Of a DNA stretch of 64,000 nucleotides, positions 2,674 through 64,000 are shown piece by piece. Source of the stretch: an uncultured bacterium (GTDB lineage Bacteria; Patescibacteriota; Minisyncoccia; Phycocordibacterales; UBA2100). The DNA is taken from the NCBI GenBank assembly GCA_903858755.1, contig CAIOKC010000027.1:2192-66191 (forward strand), given 5' to 3'. The position numbers and the translations under genes are program-made. The notes under the pieces are model-generated. The model was not told the origin of the DNA. It was given only the letters and a program-made list of their open reading frames with translations, and did no database searches. Within the stretch, counting starts at the first letter, position 1; each line of letters begins with the position of its first letter.

Positions 2674-3343
2674 CTTTTCTCTCCACTTTTACACTCCACT
2701 TCATACGCTTCGCGTAGCGGTACAGCTTTGAATTCGGATTGAAGCAAATCGGCTTTGCGACCATTTCCAGGAATGGTACATCGGTCTCCGTATCGCCCAC
2801 CCCCACGGAGTGCGCGAGCGTGAGACCTTCTTTCTCGACCGCACGCTTCACGATATTTGCTTTGTTGAGAATGAGGTGCTCATCGATCACTTTGCCGGTG
2901 AAGCAATCTTGCGGACCGATCTCATAGACCATGCCGTATGTCTTATCAAATCCGAGCCGCGGGCAGAATTTATCGAGCACCGTCTTCGGCGAGTGCGACA
3001 CCGCGAGAAGAAAATACCCGCGCGACCGCAGATCCTTGAGCAGATCGCGCGTATAGCGGTAGGTGCGCTTCCACTGCTCATCGACCACCTCTTCCGCGGC
3101 ATCGGCAAGCGCAGAGTAGTGCACGCCCTTAAGGTGCCCGACGAATGCGCGTACGACCGCATCGATGTATTCCTGGTAGTCGCCCTCGCGATCGAGCCAG
3201 CGCACATGCTCGCGCTCATAGACCCTCCTCGTATCCGGAGGGAACACGCCTTTCTCGATGAGTCGATTGACGACCTGTATCAGAAGGCTGGAGCGGAATA
3301 TCGTACCGTCTACATCAAATATCGCCGCCCGCCGTTTCTCCAT
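2651..3343 (-). CDS. HAD-superfamily hydrolase/phosphatase
   Basis: DVDGT motif I near the N-terminus and GDTETD motif IV. Confidence 0.6.
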   Translation of the reverse strand: MEKRRAAIFDVDGTIFRSSLLIQVVNRLIEKGVFPPDTRRVYEREHVRWLDREGDYQEYIDAVVRAFVGHLKGVHYSALADAAEEVVDEQWKRTYRYTRDLLKDLRSRGYFLLAVSHSPKTVLDKFCPRLGFDKTYGMVYEIGPQDCFTGKVIDEHLILNKANIVKRAVEKEGLTLAHSVGVGDTETDVPFLEMVAKPICFNPNSKLYRYAKRMKWSVKVERKDVMYDIR

Positions 3344-3652
3344 GCCGCCATGGTACCAGAAGCATGGATTTGCGATACTCGTACAGCTGTGGCACGATGC
3401 ACCAGACCACTAGCACCAAGGAGATGATCGTGAAGACAGTTCTTTCCGATACGAAATGCCCGAAGCATAAGTGCAAATGCGTCCTCCGCGGCGGGCAGGT
3501 CGTCTGCCTCAAATGCGAGGATGAGAAAAATCAGAAGCAATTCTCAAATCAGCCCGGTCACGGTCCTGCCAAACAGCAGACGTAGCGGTGCGCGTGAAAA
3601 AGCAAAGGGTGCCCCGTGGTGCCCTTTTTGTTTTTTGGCGATAGGCTATTGT

Positions 3653-4726
3653 ATGGATATGAAGCGCAAGATACGCGTCGGCATTCTATTCGGAGGGAAA
3701 TCCGCCGAGCACGAAGTATCTATCCGCTCCGCGCGAAATGTCGCCGAAGCGATAGACAAAGAAAAATACGAGGTGCGACTTATCGGTATCGACAAAAAAG
3801 GTCATTGGCTGGCTCCGCAAAAATCAGCCGCACTTATAGGGGCGACGAGCATCCCTACATCCGATGTAAAAAGTATTGTCCTCGCACCTGAGAGCGACGG
3901 CGATATAACGAGCTCCGAAGGCGAGGAAAAAATCGACGTGGTCTTCCCTATTCTCCACGGACCGTTTGGCGAAGACGGAACAGTGCAAGGGTTGCTTCGA
4001 ATCGCCAATGTCCCTTTCGTCGGCGCGGGGGTGCTTGGCTCCGCGATCGGCATGGATAAGGACGTGATGAAGCGGCTCCTCCGGGATGCGGGCATCTCTA
4101 TTGCCAAATTCATTGTCGCAACGGAATCGGCTCCGGTTTCGTTCAAACAAGCGCACTCCGAGCTTGGTCTACCCCTCTTCATAAAACCCGCAAACCTCGG
4201 CTCGTCGGTCGGAGTCAGTAAAGTGACGACGGAGGAAGAGTACGCGCCGGCGATCAGAAAAGCGTTTCAATTCGATACCAAGATTCTCATCGAGGAGTAC
4301 ATCGAGGGTCGCGAAATCGAGTGTTCGGTCTTGGGCAACGAGAATCCGATTGCATCAATCCCCGGTGAAGTCATCGTTCACGACGAGTTCTATTCGTATG
4401 ACGCGAAATACATCGACGAGAGAGGCGCGTCGCTCCGTATACCTGCAGATATTCCGCCGGAGACGACACGGCTCGTGCAGGAAACCGCAATCAAGACGTA
4501 CCAAGCGCTCGCATGCGAAGGCATGGGTCGGGTCGATTCATTCCTTACACTAGACGGTCGCGTCGTCGTGAATGAGATCAACACCATCCCCGGATTTACC
4601 AATATCAGCATGTACCCGAAGATGTGGGAGGCATCTGGAATTTCGTACACGGATTTGATCGACAGATTGATCACCCTCGCGCTGGAACGATTCGAAAAGC
4701 AAAGTCGCCTCAAAACAGCCCGCTAG
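3653..4726 (+). CDS. ddl: D-alanine--D-alanine ligase
   Basis: Ddl N-terminal and ATP-grasp motifs (RVGILFGGKSAEHEVS; EIECSVLG; VNEINTIPGFT). Start placed at ATG 3653 (MDMKRKIRV); the longer upstream ORF extension looks non-coding. Confidence 0.85.
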   Translation: MDMKRKIRVGILFGGKSAEHEVSIRSARNVAEAIDKEKYEVRLIGIDKKGHWLAPQKSAALIGATSIPTSDVKSIVLAPESDGDITSSEGEEKIDVVFPILHGPFGEDGTVQGLLRIANVPFVGAGVLGSAIGMDKDVMKRLLRDAGISIAKFIVATESAPVSFKQAHSELGLPLFIKPANLGSSVGVSKVTTEEEYAPAIRKAFQFDTKILIEEYIEGREIECSVLGNENPIASIPGEVIVHDEFYSYDAKYIDERGASLRIPADIPPETTRLVQETAIKTYQALACEGMGRVDSFLTLDGRVVVNEINTIPGFTNISMYPKMWEASGISYTDLIDRLITLALERFEKQSRLKTAR

Positions 4727-4786
4727 ACCGCTATTGTTTATCAGTACCTATAGGACGAGATAAACAATAGCGGTGTATATCAGCAA

Positions 4787-5455
4787 TCACTTGATCCTTG
4801 GCCACCGTGTGGCGGCTTTGGGGTAGAGCTTCGTGAGCGGGTGCTTCGTGCAGTCATGCGGACGGGCGGGGCATACGTAGCGACCGTAGAGGACGAGTCC
4901 GTTGTTTACGTACTTCCAATCTTTCTTCGGGATGAGGCGTTCAAGGTCGTGTGAAATCTTTTTAAGGTCGTCGTGATCCGTAAGATCAAAACGCTTCGCA
5001 AACCGCTTCACATGCGTGTCGGTCGGGATGCCTCCCCACGTATCGTGAAGCTCGCCAAGGATTACGTGCGCCGTCTTGTAGCCGACGCCGGGGAGTTTCT
5101 GCAGGTCATTCTCGTCGCGCGGCACTTTTCCCCCGAAATCACGCGATACCATCTTCGCCGCGGCGATAATATGCTTTGCTTTGTTGCGAAAGAAGGTGAT
5201 GGAAGAAATCTCGCGTTCAAACGTCCGTGGATCCGCATCCGCGAAACACGACGGCTTCTTGTATTTCTTGAAAAGCGTTTCGTTCACCCTATTTACCGCC
5301 TTGTCGGTGCACTGCGCCGACATTACGACCGCGACAACAAGCTGGAATGGCGTCGAATACCGCAGCTCCGTCTTCGGCTTCGGATACGTCCGCTTAAGAT
5401 ACGCGACGATTTTCCGCGCGCGCGCTCTCCTCTCCTTGAGTCGTTCAGTCTTCAC
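4787..5455 (-). CDS. nth: Endonuclease III family DNA glycosylase/lyase
   Basis: HhH-GPD fold with the LPGVGYKTAHVIL motif and C-terminal Cys residues. Confidence 0.8.
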   Translation of the reverse strand: MKTERLKERRARARKIVAYLKRTYPKPKTELRYSTPFQLVVAVVMSAQCTDKAVNRVNETLFKKYKKPSCFADADPRTFEREISSITFFRNKAKHIIAAAKMVSRDFGGKVPRDENDLQKLPGVGYKTAHVILGELHDTWGGIPTDTHVKRFAKRFDLTDHDDLKKISHDLERLIPKKDWKYVNNGLVLYGRYVCPARPHDCTKHPLTKLYPKAATRWPRIK

Positions 5456-56861: not shown

Positions 56862-56933
56862 AGCGGGGTGGAGCAGGAGTAGCTCGCAAGGCTCATAACC
56901 TTGAGGTCGCGGGTGCAATTCCCGCCCCCGCAA
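56862..56933 (+). tRNA. Initiator-like tRNA-Met (CAU)
   Basis: aGCGGGG...CTCATAA...CCCCGCA with unpaired positions 1-72; resembles E. coli tRNA-fMet. The T-loop (TGCAATT) is atypical. Confidence 0.6.
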
Positions 56934-57077
56934 CAAATACAGAAAGGGCTCCCGCTTGGGAGTCTTTTCTGTATTCGATGCCGCGGGGAGCGAGGCAACT
57001 GCTTGCCTCGCGTGCGGAATTGCACGGCAGTGCGCTGTGCACGCACCGCACTGCCGCGGTCCCGGAGGGAAATTCCC

Positions 57078-57200
57078 GCCCCCGCAACACGATTGTGATA
57101 GCCGGAACCAGTACCGCCTCCCGTCAAAGGTAGTACGGTATCGACCGGCGTCACAGGCAGAAACAACGCAAAAGCCGCGACTTTCATCGTGGCTTTTGCG
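57078..57200 (+). repeat. About 125-bp direct repeat, copy A, beginning with a copy of the tRNA-fMet 3' end
   Basis: CCCGCCCCCGCAACAcgATTGTGA...GGTACGGTATCGAC...GAAACAaCgcAAAGCCGCGACTT; about 75% identical to copy B. Confidence 0.6.
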
Positions 57201-57226
57201 TTGGATCTACTCCAGAGATAGCATAC

Positions 57227-58306
57227 CTATATTTTCCGATATCGTGTTGCCCGACCAAGTCCGATTCGCTTGATCAAGCCTCGCTTCAGCAGCGTTTCGA
57301 GCGCTTTCCCGACGGTGGGGAGAAGCAGCCCTGTCGCGGCGGCTATCTCAGCCCTGCTTCCTTCGTTTGCTTTTGCGAGGTATTCGAATACCGCCTTTTG
57401 CTTCGGAGAGAGCGCATCTTCTTGTGCCTCTTTGTCGACAAACGCGAGCGCTTTCTCGGCCTGTTCTTTGACGACCGACAAAAAGAAATTGAGCCACGGG
57501 GCTATCGACTCTCCCTCGCCGACTGGATTCTTTTGCGATCGGAATGTTTCTTGCGAGGCGCGCAGAGCGAAATAGTACTCCTCCTTTCGCGACTCAACGA
57601 TTTGTTCGTGAGAGACGTACTCGATAAACAAGTACCCAGATCGCAACAAGAGCAGGTTTGTGAGTACGCGGGAAAGGCGTCCGTTGCCGTCCTCAAACGG
57701 GTGTATTTTTAGAAACTCAATGATAAAGTTTGCGATGATGAGGAGCGGATGGAAACGTTCTTTCTCCAAGGCCTCGTGCGCCCACTCGATAAGCTCAGTC
57801 ATTTCTTTGCTGGTAAGATACGCGGGCGTCGTCTCAAACATGATGTGCGCCACTTTTCCGTCCTCTCTCAGCACACCGACGATATTCTCCTTTCGTTTCC
57901 AGTCGCCGCGATGCAGGTCATCTTTCGTGGAGTACTTGAGAAGTTCCTTGTGCAATGATTTTATCAGCCCTTCTCGAAGCGGCATGGTTTTGTAATTTTC
58001 GAAGACGTGTTGAAGCGTTTCGAGGTATCCCTGCACCTCTTGCGAATCGCGGTCGGCAAACCGTTGTATTTTCATTCCTTGCATGATCTTTTTGACCTCC
58101 TCGTCGGAAAGTCTTGACCCCTCGATACGGGTGGAGGCGCCTGCCGATGTTATGAGTACTGATTTTCGGAGCGTCGTTATGGCTTCAGGTGTCATGCGCA
58201 GTCCCGCTCGAAAAACTCCGCGCATTTCATCGATTGCCGCAAGGAGTGCGACAATGCGAGGGCTTGGGTGTTCGATCCTGTGGTCAAATGTACCGTGAGC
58301 GGGCAT
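57227..58306 (-). CDS. Fic-family protein (AMPylase-type, class II with N-terminal inhibitory SxxxEG helix, C-terminal wHTH)
   Basis: HPFEDGNGRLSR Fic motif; STRIEGS inhibitory motif; C-terminal winged helix. Confidence 0.85.
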   Translation of the reverse strand: MPAHGTFDHRIEHPSPRIVALLAAIDEMRGVFRAGLRMTPEAITTLRKSVLITSAGASTRIEGSRLSDEEVKKIMQGMKIQRFADRDSQEVQGYLETLQHVFENYKTMPLREGLIKSLHKELLKYSTKDDLHRGDWKRKENIVGVLREDGKVAHIMFETTPAYLTSKEMTELIEWAHEALEKERFHPLLIIANFIIEFLKIHPFEDGNGRLSRVLTNLLLLRSGYLFIEYVSHEQIVESRKEEYYFALRASQETFRSQKNPVGEGESIAPWLNFFLSVVKEQAEKALAFVDKEAQEDALSPKQKAVFEYLAKANEGSRAEIAAATGLLLPTVGKALETLLKRGLIKRIGLGRATRYRKI

Positions 58307-58403
58307 AATTTCCTGCTACTTTATGTGTATTAGATATTATTAGATCTTATGAGAAAGGTCAAGTGGCTCTATTTCAGGCCATTTACGGGGCACAAGACTT
58401 GCA

Positions 58404-58547
58404 CCAGCGTAATGCGCGCCCCCCGCAACAGCATTGTGACGCTCGGAACTCGTTCCGTCAGGCATTAAAGGGTGTCGAGAAGCCGGTACGGTATCGACTG
58501 GCATCAGGCCGCCTAGAAACACCAAAGCCGCGACTTGGGACTCACCC
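58404..58547 (+). repeat. About 125-bp direct repeat, copy B
   Basis: GCGCCCCCCGCAACAgcATTGTGAcgctCGGAAC...GGTACGGTATCGACtGGC...GAAACAcCAAAGCCGCGACTT. Confidence 0.6.
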
Positions 58548-58665
58548 TCGCCGGTGGGTTTCCCGTTTATCATCTTCGAGTAAGTGGACTAACTCCGTCC
58601 TTCCTTCGTACTTCACCTTTGTGCTGGGGTTAGTTATAGTAGCAACAGAAAAACCTCAGGAGAAG

Positions 58666-59016
58666 ATGCCGATGAGTCCTTTTGAAGAGCTCTCGAACGA
58701 AATCGACCAAATCTCCAAGCTGCACTCAAAAAGCAGGCTCGTCAGAGTCTTGCGCCGCATCGAATATTGGAGGCGTCGGTACTGGACCAACGAAACGATC
58801 CCCTTCGAGTGGGTTGGCGAGGGTGGTGCGCCCGTTGGAGAACCCATCGAGGTCGTTCACATGACACTCTACGACATGATGGAACACCAAGTCGGGGGGA
58901 TACTTACACGCAAGATTTTGCTCGAAGGGTTGCGCGTCAATGCGGTGCAGAAGCTTGGTTTCGAGCGTCTGGACCAGTGGCATGGTAAGACTACTGTCCA
59001 GCCTCGCTGGGTCTAG
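58666..59016 (+). CDS. Hypothetical protein
   Basis: AGGAG RBS 5 nt upstream of ATG 58666; 116 aa. Confidence 0.4.
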   Translation: MPMSPFEELSNEIDQISKLHSKSRLVRVLRRIEYWRRRYWTNETIPFEWVGEGGAPVGEPIEVVHMTLYDMMEHQVGGILTRKILLEGLRVNAVQKLGFERLDQWHGKTTVQPRWV

Positions 59017-59116
59017 CACACATTTCCCCTCTTTCGATTTCAGCCGCATGGTTCGCCCAGCGGCTTTTTCGCTTGAAACAATGATGGTATCTTCAACGCG
59101 GACAATCGAGGATACA

Positions 59117-59707
59117 ATGGGACACATGTACGACTACCACGCAGTTCTCGGCGCCGTCGCGCTCGCTGTCGGCGTAGCAGGATACATTCCTTACATCTCC
59201 AATACGCTGAAAGGGACTACAAAACCGCACCCGTTCACGTACCTTATCTGGGCACTGATCGGCGCGATCTCGTTTGCAGCCCAGCTTGCGGAAAACGGTG
59301 GTCCGGGCGCATGGGCGATGGGAATTCCCGTCCTATTCGGCATCGTGATCGCAGCGCTCTCGCTCACAAAAGGCGAGAAATCTATCACAAAAAGCGATTG
59401 GCTCTGCCTGATCACGGCGCTTGGAGCAATAGCGATCTGGCAGCTCACCGACGACGCGCTCTACGCAGTCATCATCGTGATCGGGATCAACACCCTCGCA
59501 TTCGTTCCGACATTCCGGAAAGCGTACTCCAAACCCGACGAGGAAACCGCTCTATCATACGCGCTTGGCGTATTGAGAAGCGTCATCTCGATTCCGGCAC
59601 TCCTTTCGTTCAATGTGGTGACCGTCTTACCTCTCGCATACCACATCCTTTCGAACCTGGCGCTTGTGGTGATGCTCATTGTACGAAGAAAAAACCTCGG
59701 AAGATGA
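59117..59707 (+). CDS. Polytopic membrane protein
   Basis: Five or six hydrophobic helices; GAGGA RBS upstream of ATG 59117. Confidence 0.45.
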   Translation: MGHMYDYHAVLGAVALAVGVAGYIPYISNTLKGTTKPHPFTYLIWALIGAISFAAQLAENGGPGAWAMGIPVLFGIVIAALSLTKGEKSITKSDWLCLITALGAIAIWQLTDDALYAVIIVIGINTLAFVPTFRKAYSKPDEETALSYALGVLRSVISIPALLSFNVVTVLPLAYHILSNLALVVMLIVRRKNLGR

Positions 59708-59757
59708 TATTCCTCCTCACGCGAATAATCCCGCTCTCTGCGGGATTATTTCTTGTA

Positions 59758-60468
59758 TCACTCGATGAAGCGAAATTCACGGAATACCTTTTCGTAGAGC
59801 GACATGATGCGGCGGACTTCGCGTGAATTCAATTCGTGCGCGGTCCCCGAATGTGCGATTTTATTGCGGATCTTGTGCGCCTCCCATGCAAGATCAATGG
59901 TGTTGAATGTCGCGCGGTCGACCGATTTCATTTTGTCTGCCATGGTCTCGCCTCTGTAGCCAAGCGTGTCGAGCAATTCGTTGAGCATGATATCCGCTTC
60001 GAGAATCGCGAGGCGCCAGCTTTGATCGTTCTCGGAATGGGCTTGATCCAGGACGCGATGCCATCGCAGGTGCGTCTTCGGGACATCGTGCGAAGCGACG
60101 GTGCGCTGCATCGCCGCGAATCGTTTGCGCTCCATCTGGCGCACTTGGAAAATACGGATCGAGCAGTAGATGATGAGCGCCGCCAGCAGTAGCGAGATGA
60201 AGAGCGAGAAAGCGACAAAAACGCTCCAGCGATGGAACAGCGCATCGTACACACCCGGGCTCGAAGCGTACTGAAGGTACTCGACGACCTGAGGGGCGGT
60301 CACCGGCTCCGTGATAGGGCGCAGTAGCACCGACGACTGCGTAGAGTCGCCCGGCACGCCTGTCTGAACGAACGTGACGACGGTACCAGGCACCCACTTG
60401 AAAGCGAGCTCGCCCAAGAACCAAAATACCCACGCAAAGGCGCTGCCGAGACCGGGTTCGGGAGTCAT
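59758..60468 (-). CDS. Membrane protein with C-terminal HEPN-like (Rx4H; DUF4145/Abi-like) domain
   Basis: TM helices followed by LAWEAHKIRNKIAHSG (R-x4-H). Confidence 0.4.
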   Translation of the reverse strand: MTPEPGLGSAFAWVFWFLGELAFKWVPGTVVTFVQTGVPGDSTQSSVLLRPITEPVTAPQVVEYLQYASSPGVYDALFHRWSVFVAFSLFISLLLAALIIYCSIRIFQVRQMERKRFAAMQRTVASHDVPKTHLRWHRVLDQAHSENDQSWRLAILEADIMLNELLDTLGYRGETMADKMKSVDRATFNTIDLAWEAHKIRNKIAHSGTAHELNSREVRRIMSLYEKVFREFRFIE

Positions 60469-60481
60469 GCAGAAAAGTATA

Positions 60482-61891
60482 CTACGCCTTCTCTACCTGC
60501 TCGCCGATTTTAAACAATGTCTCTTCGCTTCCGTGCGCGCCGATGAGCTGGAAACCTACCGGAAGCTTCTTCCCCTCCCTCTCTACGGTGCCGCTCGGTA
60601 CCGAAATAGCGGGCACTCCCGCAAGATTCGCCGGGACAGAGAAGATATCCTCGGCATACATGGCGAGAGGATCCGATTTCTCGCCGAATTTGAATGCGGG
60701 AGAGGCGGTCGTGGGAAGCGCGATCGCATCGACCGATTCAAAAGCGCGCGCGAAATCATTTCGTATGACATCACGCACGGCGCGCGCTTTTCGATAGTAT
60801 GCATCGGCGTAGCCAGATGAAAGCACGAAGGTGCCGAGCAAGATTCTGCGCCGCACCTCCGGTCCGAATCCCGCACCGCGCGTCTTTGTATACACTTCTC
60901 CGATCGAGTCCGCCGGTACGGAGAGACCGTAGCGGATGCCGTCGTACCGCGCAAGATTCGTCGATACCTCAGCCGGGCAGACGATGTAGTACACCGCGAG
61001 CGAATGCGGAAGGTGCGGCATGCTGATGTCGCGCACCGCATATCCCGCCGCACGGAGCGTATCGAGAGCGGCTTCGAACATCTGGAGCACATCCGCATCT
61101 ACTCCTTCCGCAAGGAAATCTCGCGGCACGCCGACGGTCTTCGGAGTGGGACTTTGGGCTTCCGTGTCCGGCAGTGAAGTGCTGTCTTTCGGGTCGTTGC
61201 CCTTCAGTACGTCGAAGAGGATCCTCGCATCTCCGACCGTGCGCGCGAGAGGGCCTATCTGATCGAGCGACGAACCCATCGGCATAAGTCCGAAACGCGA
61301 TACGGCGCCATAGGTAGGCTTGAGCCCCACGAGCCCCGTATGCGCTGCGGGCTGCCGTATTGAGCCGCCCGTGTCAGACCCGAGCGCGGCGAGCGCCATG
61401 CATGCGGCGACAGCCGCGGCAGAGCCGCCCGAAGATCCTCCCGGGATGCGCGCAGTGTCGTGGGGATTTTTCGTCGGACCAAACGCGGAATTCTCCGTGG
61501 AACTTCCCATCGCGAATTCATCCATATTGGTGCGACCGAGGAATACAGCGCCTTGTGCCTTCAGCTTCGCGATAGCGGTCGCATCGTAGGAAGCGGTGTA
61601 GTGCTCAAGTATGTGCGAGGCGGAGCTCGCGACGCGCCCTTCGATAAGGATGTTGTCCTTGATCGCAATCGGTATGCCTGTCAGCGGCTGCGATGTCCCC
61701 GCCGCGATCATTGCGTCTGCTGCGCGCGCCTCTGCGCGCGCAGCATCTGCCCACACCTCCAGATAGGCGTGAATGTCGATATCTTTTTCCGCGATACTCT
61801 CCAGATACGCGTTCGTGAGATCGAGTGCCGAGTACTCTCTCGCATCGAGCGCGCGGCGTGCTTCCGCAATCGTAAGATTGGAGAGATCCAT
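60482..61891 (-). CDS. gatA: Glutamyl/aspartyl-tRNA amidotransferase subunit A
   Basis: Amidase signature GGSSGGSAAAVAA. Confidence 0.9.
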   Translation of the reverse strand: MDLSNLTIAEARRALDAREYSALDLTNAYLESIAEKDIDIHAYLEVWADAARAEARAADAMIAAGTSQPLTGIPIAIKDNILIEGRVASSASHILEHYTASYDATAIAKLKAQGAVFLGRTNMDEFAMGSSTENSAFGPTKNPHDTARIPGGSSGGSAAAVAACMALAALGSDTGGSIRQPAAHTGLVGLKPTYGAVSRFGLMPMGSSLDQIGPLARTVGDARILFDVLKGNDPKDSTSLPDTEAQSPTPKTVGVPRDFLAEGVDADVLQMFEAALDTLRAAGYAVRDISMPHLPHSLAVYYIVCPAEVSTNLARYDGIRYGLSVPADSIGEVYTKTRGAGFGPEVRRRILLGTFVLSSGYADAYYRKARAVRDVIRNDFARAFESVDAIALPTTASPAFKFGEKSDPLAMYAEDIFSVPANLAGVPAISVPSGTVEREGKKLPVGFQLIGAHGSEETLFKIGEQVEKA

Positions 61892-61892
61892 A

Positions 61893-62189
61893 CTACTTCT
61901 TTTTTCGAGAGATGACCTGCTTCACCGCAATGCGGTCGCCCTCGCGCATCGGCGCGGCACTCAAGAGCTTCTCTGTGTGTGCGCCGCTTTCATGCGGCGC
62001 CTCATCTGCACGCATCACATTGCGCAGCCCCTTCGGCATAGAGGTCGACGACGTATCGACGCTCTGGATCGTCTCTATAAAACGAAGAATGCCGGGTATC
62101 TCCTTTTCGAGCCGCGCAAGCTCCTCGGGCGCAACCTCGATGCGCGCCAGTCTCGCAAGTGCCCCGATATCGACTTTTCCATCGCTCAT
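61893..62189 (-). CDS. gatC: Glu/Asp-tRNA amidotransferase subunit C
   Basis: Small GatC-like protein immediately upstream of gatA; start trimmed to MSDGKVDIGALARLARIEV. Confidence 0.75.
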   Translation of the reverse strand: MSDGKVDIGALARLARIEVAPEELARLEKEIPGILRFIETIQSVDTSSTSMPKGLRNVMRADEAPHESGAHTEKLLSAAPMREGDRIAVKQVISRKKK

Positions 62190-62245
62190 CCAGACACTAT
62201 ACCCCAAAGTCGGATTGCATTCGACGAGAAACGCGAGAACACGCC

Positions 62246-64000
<1,755 letters not shown>

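Follow-up and report, generated by a model that had tools for sequence, protein, structure and literature searches.

A fic gene between repeats of the initiator tRNA 3' end in Patescibacteria: probable remnant of an eroded genomic island

The tRNA-fMet 3' end, its repeats and the insert E0

We analyzed a 64,000-nt stretch of DNA from an uncultured bacterium of the Patescibacteria (contig CAIOKC010000027.1; hereafter the window), in which a single gene for a Fic protein lies between two long direct repeats downstream of an initiator tRNA gene. The initiator-type tRNA-Met gene (CAT anticodon) is found at 56862-56934 on the plus strand (ARAGORN; Rfam tRNA, 56.5 bits). ARAGORN called it merely tRNA-Met, and the initiator class comes from a direct reading of the sequence, which shows the A11:U24 pair, no pairing at the mismatched position 1:72, and ...CCCCGCAACA as its 3' end. 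The last 19 nt of the tRNA, AATTCCCGCCCCCGCAACA (56917-56935), are the first copy of a repeated core. A second, perfect copy lies at 57071-57089 on the plus strand (repeat search, 100% identity, 154-nt spacing); upstream of it, a weaker alignment to the tRNA T-arm reaches back to about 57058. The third core copy (58420-58430) repeats the last 11 nt of the tRNA. The string CCCCCGCAACA was found at three sites of the 64 kb and no others (56925, 57079, and 58420), always on the plus strand.

The repeat unit that starts with this core is tripartite, with the tRNA-fMet 3' end followed by a trailer of about 65 nt, which forms an imperfect palindrome, and by a palindromic terminator. Copy A (57079-57208, plus strand) contains the core at 57079-57089, the trailer hairpin at 57092-57160, and the terminator hairpin at 57159-57208. 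This terminator was also detected as an inverted repeat and is bidirectional, as it also ends fic, with a minus-strand terminator-like site at 57179-57167. Copy B (58420 to about 58547, plus strand) contains the core at 58420-58430, the trailer at 58433-58513, and the left arm alone of the terminator, at 58518-58534; its homology stops inside the terminator loop. A search for the isolated right half of this hairpin, as a possible attR, found none. With a covariance model, copy A matched at 73.1 bits (E 2.6e-16) and copy B at 39.4 bits (E 2.3e-7). The folding z-score was -6.65 for copy A and 0.15 for copy B, which is no more stable than its shuffled versions.

Copies A and B are co-linear and about 75-80% identical, with alignment blocks of 52 nt (71%), 21 nt (90%), and 19 nt (89%), and a longest identical run of about 14 nt. 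A gapped global alignment gave 86 matches in 108 aligned positions with one 12-nt indel, and the parts after the core aligned locally with z = 12.9 against shuffles. A blastn search of the repeat against the whole window returned a 54-nt block (E = 4e-6) and a 38-nt block (E = 0.03), and no further copies. These values led us to reject chance similarity, and the lack of other copies in the 64 kb excludes a dispersed repeat inside the window. Peptide coding in the repeats was also rejected, by inference: frame preservation is what the DNA similarity predicts, and the ORFs (open reading frames) cross the tRNA 3' end.

The initial annotation had described co-oriented repeats, about 75% identical, at the edges of a minus-strand Fic gene, and this layout was borne out, with an identity far above background. 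Its statement that both repeats end in terminator-like hairpins holds for copy A but not for copy B, which keeps half of the hairpin. It had also recorded two repeats of the tRNA end; both are present, but the third, perfect 19-nt copy was missed.

That third copy closes a small non-coding insert rich in hairpins, which we call E0. It separates the tRNA from the second core copy (56936-57070, plus strand, 135 nt; minimum free energy -82.4 kcal/mol, z = -7.9), with a terminator hairpin at its start (56936-56975) and a T-arm-like stretch at its end, and the 19-nt repeat closes it (56917-56935 = 57071-57089). Two related loci (loci on other contigs are cited by L numbers), L084 and L101, lack E0 and have the trailer directly after the tRNA, that is, they are empty sites for E0. 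Related inserts were found at the same position in L087 (about 1351-1445 of the reverse complement) and L097 (about 3236-3435 of the reverse complement). Inserts of this type are 85-190 nt long, lie exactly at the tRNA-fMet 3' end and are edged by 12-20-nt repeats of that end. The layout in three genomes consists of a terminator hairpin, GGGGAG, a covarying hairpin, and then GTGCGGAATTGCA; the hairpin stem covaries completely (GCGAGGCAA/TTGCCTCGC, GCGAGAGTGT/ACACTCTCGC, GTGAAGCGC/GCGCTTCGC). An Rfam search with E0 gave no match. As to its nature, E0 may be a miniature element, a small RNA or, given that GCGGGG and CCCCGC are able to pair, a relic resembling a tRNA.

The fic gene

The sole ORF between copies A and B is fic (57227-58306, minus strand), coding for a class II Fic/FIDO AMPylase of 359 aa with a C-terminal winged helix-turn-helix (wHTH) domain, of the SoFic type (Pfam, PADLOC). 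The class II Fic protein with an intact motif, an SxxxEG helix, and a wHTH domain that had been read here initially was thus recovered. Pfam gave Fic with E 1.3e-16, and HTH_IclR and MarR_2 at residues 299-357. In the translation, the Fic motif HxFx(D/E)GNGRxxR reads HPFEDGNGRLSR, and the inhibitory helix (S/T)xxxE(G/N) reads STRIEG (SxxxEG) at about residues 57-62, N-terminal to the core. The PADLOC SoFic profile PDLC03963 matched with E 2.1e-42 (residues 44-354 on profile positions 50-347 of 361), and the best solved relative was PDB 8uqu, a Fido-domain protein (E 1.8e-35).

SoFic has been described as a toxic AMPylase that acts in abortive-infection defense (PMC12249575), and SoFIC is the second most prevalent bacterial defense family in groundwater metagenome-assembled genomes (PMC12259885). 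From its family membership, the Fic of the window would be expected to be a self-inhibited toxin in abortive-infection phage defense. It has the same motif, SxxxEG helix, wHTH domain, and length (about 360 aa) as the single-gene SoFic defense (Shewanella oneidensis/E. coli Sofic; PMC12249575; bioRxiv 10.64898/2026.07.09.737422), to which its kinship is at the profile level only. The SoFic system has a 47-aa AS1-like gene downstream, whereas the fic of the window has none; an AS1-like antitoxin was rejected since there is no room for it in the 19 nt between the stop codon and the terminator.

The Fic family is very large (7,544 matches, the top 120 at 67-100% identity). Homologs on genome contigs, at 62-79% identity, came from many Patescibacteria lineages and a few other phyla, and they occupy differing genomic places; the nearest among the contigs is that of L084 (79% identical). 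Look-ups of the exact protein, both for the Fic of the window and for the Fic cluster P0001, returned no record. Adjacency to a tRNA is not a general rule for fic: only about 6 of 80 homolog loci had any tRNA within about 400 nt, and these tRNAs differ. Carriage by phages was rejected as well, as four IMG/VR contigs encode a Fic 63-67% identical to ours and none has the unit, a tRNA, or the large serine recombinase described below; a search for the unit pattern in viral contigs found it absent. The GC content of fic is 0.49-0.51, versus 0.55-0.62 in the flanks.

The promoter scan placed a fic promoter at 58334-58362 on the minus strand (TTGACC, 17 nt, TAATAT, with tandem TCTAATA repeats). This design, of -35 and -10 boxes plus a tandem repeat, is kept upstream of fic homologs at unrelated loci. 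The tandem direct repeat (window 58307-58362; 60 nt upstream in L001-L083) shifts in step between lineages (CTAATAgAATCTAATA, CTGATAAAATCTGATA, GCTATAATCTGCTATA). It looks like an operator that co-evolves with the winged-helix domain of the protein, which would mean autoregulation.

Island content, unit arrays, and the trailer in related genomes

The closest relative is L084 (contig CAZFMA010000027.1, also represented by L001/L004), which is syntenic with the window on both sides: ligA-gatC-gatA-X on one, and tRNA-Met, then tRNA-Asp, tRNA-Met, and tRNA-Thr on the other. Its tRNA-Met is 97% identical to that of the window. At the tRNA-fMet site, L084 carries an island of 6.6 kb with six genes between tRNA-fMet and X (fic, a PrimPol-DEAD helicase, an 81-aa gene, a HigB-like gene, a NUDIX gene, and a PIF1-type helicase), whereas the window has 1.3 kb and fic alone; fic is at the same end in both. 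The blastn homology between them runs from fic through 129 nt of upstream region and ends at the core copy (to 58435). It includes the island-side junction arm upstream of fic (58363-58419, no strand assigned), which is common to both and ends in a decayed stretch resembling the tRNA T-loop (..GCGTAATGCGCGC). At the distal junction of L084, upstream of fic, the T-loop and 3' end of the tRNA of this locus persist in decayed form as GGTGCAAGTC..CCTGCAACA, and GGTGCAAGTC is identical to the T-loop of the L084 tRNA. This tRNA is directly followed by GCATTGTGATGCCGGAACCAGTTCCGG and a terminator, a stretch that is homologous to the first 30 nt or so of copies A (z = 7.8) and B (z = 5.6).

The PrimPol (AEP) and DEAD/SNF2 helicase gene of L084 (11087-13207) begins 4 nt past the fic stop codon, and a similar sequence follows fic in L012. 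The two genes may form a Fic-helicase conflict module that was lost from the window.

On the far side of copy B, the window has two plus-strand genes of unknown function, of 114 aa (58672-59016) and 196 aa (59117-59707), taken from gene calls on the ERZ1426837 contig; Pfam and PADLOC searches with both gave no matches. They are followed by the conserved flank of X (236 aa), gatA, gatC, and ligA (59758-63979, minus strand; ORFs and L084 gene table). By coordinate mapping, the ERZ1426837 contig (3,261 nt; X, 196-aa, and 114-aa genes) corresponds to about 58495-61755 of the window and ends inside copy B, which could reflect strain heterogeneity or a break induced by the repeat.

A metagenome scan with CCCCCGCAACANNATTGTGA found 29 loci, in most of which the pattern closes an initiator-type tRNA-Met, with a conserved trailer and a terminator behind it. 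Conservation extends beyond the searched pattern, through GGAACCAGTACCG, a variable apical part, GGTACGGTACCG, GGCATCAC, and the terminator AACACCAAAGCCGCGAC-loop-GTCGCGGCTTTGGTGTT. The initiator tRNAs with the unit are of two body types, and several have a group I intron in the anticodon loop, as does a second tRNA of L093 (L087, 1000-1269; L093, 11653-11855 and 5066-5273 in locus coordinates; L091, 1-201; and the start of L100). ARAGORN missed the tRNAs of these related contigs because the introns interrupt them.

The gene order gatC-gatA-X-tRNA-fMet-unit occurs in 15 metagenome loci. In its widespread form, gatC-gatA-X-tRNA-fMet-...-tRNA-Met-tRNA-Asp (L096, L099, L102, L108, L111, and L112), the block from tRNA-fMet to the 196-aa gene has the opposite orientation to that of the window and L084. 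Judged from gene order, the tRNA-fMet block of these two would be inverted relative to X, so that the initiator tRNA points toward X. In L099, tRNA-fMet is followed by one unit and then by a homolog of the 196-aa gene (33.5% identity, E 9e-32).

Two or three co-oriented units, 1-12 kb apart, were found with the covariance model in the window, L005, L086, L087, L091, L100, L106, and L108. Displaced units are preceded by decayed tRNA 3' ends, and the similarity to the tRNA usually starts in the T-arm. The cargo differs among loci: restriction-modification, with a DNA methylase and a PD-(D/E)XK nuclease, in L100; a CD-NTase of CBASS type in L095; a cytidylyltransferase, NUDIX, and histidine phosphatase in L086; TauE in L108; and ArsR, DsbD, a thioredoxin-like protein, glutamate dehydrogenase, and others in L087. 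Genes of the fic type adjoin units in L005 (Fic 75% identical) and L093 (44%), in an orientation like that of the window. For this Patescibacteria clade, the 3' end of tRNA-fMet appears as a hot spot of accessory and defense genes.

Several loci carry, immediately ahead of their distal units, a conserved segment of about 330 nt (about 160-430 in the reverse complement of L100, about 250-531 in L088, about 12770-13099 in L087, and also in L090 and L106), for which Rfam had no match. The L100 segment opens with the tRNA 3' end in inverted form (TGTTGCGGGGGCGGGAT) and closes with ..GAGTCTAGCCCCCGCAACA, which allows its two ends to pair. The 111-aa ORF that overlaps the segment may be spurious.

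Copy A and copy B are each closer to units of other genomes than to one another. The best external unit for copy A is the tRNA-adjacent unit of L101 (90 matches in 109, alignment score 57), and the best for copy B are those of L100 (88 in 101, score 51) and copy 1 of L087 (97 in 119, score 46); A against B scored 35.5. The two trailers also fall into two architectural classes. Because each copy matches foreign units better than its partner, A and B would be two diverged alleles rather than a fresh local duplication.

This comparison bears on the possibility that fic moves as a single-gene cassette, made of the promoter and the gene, which duplicates a long part of its target, for instance by template switching in replication or by Campbell-type recombination of a circular form, so that A and B would derive from one original unit. 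In 6 of 70 homolog loci (L013, L014, L039, L043, L053, and L057), fic is edged by direct repeats that are strong and peculiar to the locus, 30-144 nt long and 86-100% identical; among the controls, repeats of that strength (E < 1e-6) edged 3 of 352 shifted windows and 2 of 192 other genes. These repeats comprise the ychF 3' end (L014), 144 nt of the 3' end of another gene (L043), and 30 perfect bases that abut the stop codon (L013). In the six loci, fic is at about 3980-5060 with nothing else between the repeats, as in the window, where it is also alone, and the sequence common to fic loci at unrelated sites is limited to about 60-225 nt ahead of the gene. The bracketing of fic by repeats is a real pattern and an unexplained one. 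The cassette is nevertheless an improbable source of the window's repeats. The allele comparison and the two trailer classes argue against a single original unit, L084 has six genes between the same junctions, the repeats in L039, L053, and L057 belong to multi-copy intergenic or terminator families, and no empty sites for repeat-flanked fic were found among the fetched loci.

Another way to account for the two copies is that the unit is a functional RNA or regulatory module and that selection keeps both. It might be transcribed together with the tRNA, as a small RNA or a structured 3' trailer, and serve as a processing signal, an insulator, or a terminator. The identity of the unit between genomes reaches 80-87%, while the X and GatA proteins are 33-75% identical; because of this difference, the unit would be either under strong constraint or horizontally spread. 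The trailers of class I, copy A included, form similar irregular hairpins of about 60 nt closed by UGUGA/UCAC, whereas copy B has a second architecture. In a model-based alignment of 33 distinct sequences, which was fitted to the structure, 66% of the cells pair, as against 24-44% with slid partners. The covariation score in this structure-fitted alignment was 0.145, compared with 0.03-0.07 in slid controls, and 10 of 500 shuffles reached it. G-U pairs are frequent and fit the tRNA-sense strand only. Copy A also serves as a terminator for the tRNA side and for fic alike.

Other results speak against an RNA role. RNAalifold found no consensus structure on a plain MAFFT alignment of the trailers, and one third of the cells in the fitted alignment are unpaired. 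In the window, Rfam recognized only tRNA above threshold (the next best for copy A was BSnc120, 20.7 bits vs. a gathering score of 114), and the units of seven related loci gave no match, which led us to reject a known RNA family. A structure shared by the two copies also appears unlikely: A and B have no well-supported common fold, and the stability of A comes from its terminator. An RNA function would fit the conservation of the tRNA-proximal copy, but not the presence of cargo between copies with decayed tRNA ends. The trailer is a plausible but unproven RNA motif, and this would leave the duplication unexplained. We regard selection for RNA function as a rather unlikely explanation of the two copies, although it can coexist with the origin from an island that is proposed below. 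The alternative of small RNAs or regulatory elements in the initial annotation keeps its value for the class of units, with its conserved hairpin trailer and modest covariation, but not as the cause of the duplication, given the z-score and the half terminator of copy B.

Origin of the locus and known systems

Genes for a large serine recombinase, or their remnants, are found beside the unit in relatives of the window. In L101, an A-like unit and its terminator are immediately followed by a minus-strand large serine recombinase (Recombinase and Zn_ribbon_recom domains), truncated where the contig stops. C-terminal remnants of 44 aa of an L101-type recombinase abut the same terminator in L087 and L105, and in L092 and L095 about 2 kb of sequence with inserted cargo separates the unit from recombinase remnants farther downstream. 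L093 encodes a complete Resolvase-Recombinase-Zn-ribbon protein of 552 aa. Given this position of the gene, or of its C-terminal remnant, against the same terminator in relatives, the best candidate, and a likely one, for the driver at the tRNA-fMet site is a large serine recombinase. No tyrosine integrase was found in any of the cargo or flank proteins scanned, and an island moved by such an enzyme was rejected.

The recombinase gene of L093 (3422-5080 of the locus, plus strand) and another tRNA, which contains an intron, overlap at their 3' ends on opposite strands. The arrangement suggests that such elements may rebuild tRNA 3' ends from within the end of their own recombinase gene. The same locus has a LOOT RNA (RF03000; 2549-2667, minus strand; 59.9 bits vs. 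a gathering score of 46.4), on a Patescibacteria-like contig and unrelated to the fic islet.

We consider it probable, with moderate confidence, that an old genomic island, inserted at the initiator tRNA 3' end, has eroded, and that fic is its sole surviving cargo. As in tRNA-linked islands, the tRNA of the window is intact, with inserted material from 56936 onward, the repeats contain the tRNA 3' end, and the content varies among relatives. The mini-island at a tRNA-fMet attachment site that was first suggested for this locus is supported by the synteny with L084 and its 6.6-kb island and by the arrangements in L099 and L101. The length of the repeats, which had seemed excessive for att cores, is explained by the composition of the unit, with its conserved trailer and terminator. 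Of the checks that the initial annotation proposed, the search for further copies of the repeat unit found none in the 64 kb, and its metagenome relatives are mostly at initiator tRNA ends; an exact empty site in a close strain was not found.

In the mechanism that we propose, the crossover of an integrating element would fall in the T-arm or 3' end of the tRNA gene, and the element would bring its own replacement module, made of the tRNA 3' end, a trailer hairpin, and a terminator. The tRNA would thereby stay intact and terminated, and the earlier module would be displaced downstream. Copy A would be the incoming module, and copy B the older, displaced one, which would later have lost half of its terminator. 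A later, small insertion, E0, would have repeated the process with a 19-nt duplication. At least two events would thus have occurred in the window, the fic island and E0, and the island would then have lost everything except fic. The recombinase would since have gone from the window, its serine type being suggested by the relatives.

Several facts weigh against this origin. Large serine recombinases of the phiC31/Bxb1 type exchange strands at a 2-bp crossover, and neither need nor create long direct repeats; because of this, the long module would have to be carried by the element. A tblastn search with the serine recombinases of L101 and L093 found no gene or remnant in the window, and no attP, circular form, or exact empty site of a close strain was found. 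The unit beside the recombinase remnant of L087 is B-like, and so the assignment of A to the element and B to the host is not a clean rule. The 11.7-kb segment between units of L087 has ordinary metabolic genes and, of the recombinase, only a remnant. The repeat-edged fic homologs at other loci, with no other cargo, hint at an insertion route specific to fic.

Homologous rather than site-specific recombination could also shuffle the units. The arrays would then have formed by homologous recombination or transformation, with the tRNA-fMet and its trailer as a portable anchor of homology and without a dedicated recombinase. Consistent with this, cargo and order vary among the related contigs L087, L100, and L106, which share the unit, most arrays have no recombinase inside, and the repeats can have long blocks of identity (about 96 nt, near-identical, in L087). 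Against it, the left edges of displaced copies fall repeatedly in the tRNA T-arm, as a site-specific crossover predicts, the serine recombinase genes or remnants have a fixed position beside the terminator, and the longest run shared by A and B is short. We consider this route quite unlikely, and continue to favor an eroded island.

A broader proposal is that the tRNA-fMet 3' end, the trailer, and the terminator are a dedicated recombination module, with which large serine recombinases build arrays like those of integrons or SCC, and that SoFic-type fic genes in addition move as single-gene cassettes with target duplications of 20-145 nt, by a mechanism not yet described. We regard this as a speculative and rather unlikely idea. 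If true, it would mean a capture of defense and accessory genes, similar to that of integrons or SCC, beside the initiator tRNA of Patescibacteria.

Patescibacteria have tiny genomes and a dependence on host cells, and their mobile elements and phage defense have been charted poorly. By themselves, the locus and its relatives suggest the initiator tRNA gene as a recurrent landing site, in one clade, for SoFic, restriction-modification, CBASS, and helicase systems, and as a place to look for new defense genes and for mobile elements of the candidate phyla radiation (CPR). The trailer unit would be either a tRNA-linked RNA motif not described before or an att module that spreads horizontally; knowledge of either one would be of use. 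The window itself is ordinary, a probable decayed island with one surviving gene; the wider pattern of trailer-module arrays is the more interesting lead.

Among known systems, the attC cassettes of integrons resemble the locus in that cargo is separated by units of about 60-130 nt, imperfect palindromes arrayed at one fixed site. Unlike integrons, the locus has no IntI, its units start with a tRNA 3' end, and the orientation of the cargo is mixed. An integron array was rejected, since the unit ends CAACA..RTTGTGA do not fit RYYYAAC/GTTRRRY and no IntI or tyrosine recombinase was present in the scanned proteins.

In the staphylococcal and enterococcal cassette chromosomes (SCC/ECC), large serine recombinases (Ccr) insert islands at the 3' end of rlmH, and composite arrays and recombinase-less pseudo-SCC occur. 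The locus differs from them in its target, a tRNA and not rlmH, and in its repeats, of about 125 nt and not 15-18 nt; no pair of Ccr type was found. The likeness consists of a serine recombinase (in the relatives), a target at the 3' end of a conserved gene, serial cassettes bounded by repeats, some of them without recombinase, and accessory or defense cargo.

Islands linked to tRNA genes have a block of identity from a tRNA loop to the 3' end and can accrete in tandem at one tRNA; Williams reportedly classified tRNA-gene-associated islands and integrative elements in 2002. The window differs from such islands in having no integrase and in a repeat that runs about 110 nt past the tRNA, through the trailer and the terminator, and its relatives have a large serine recombinase in place of the tyrosine integrase. 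It shares with them the insertion at the 3' end, the repeats of the tRNA end, the intact tRNA, the variable cargo, the serial displaced att copies, and a fic of lower GC content. To this known kind of structure the locus would add a decayed, tRNA-linked island with a SoFic-type defense gene, in a poorly studied group.

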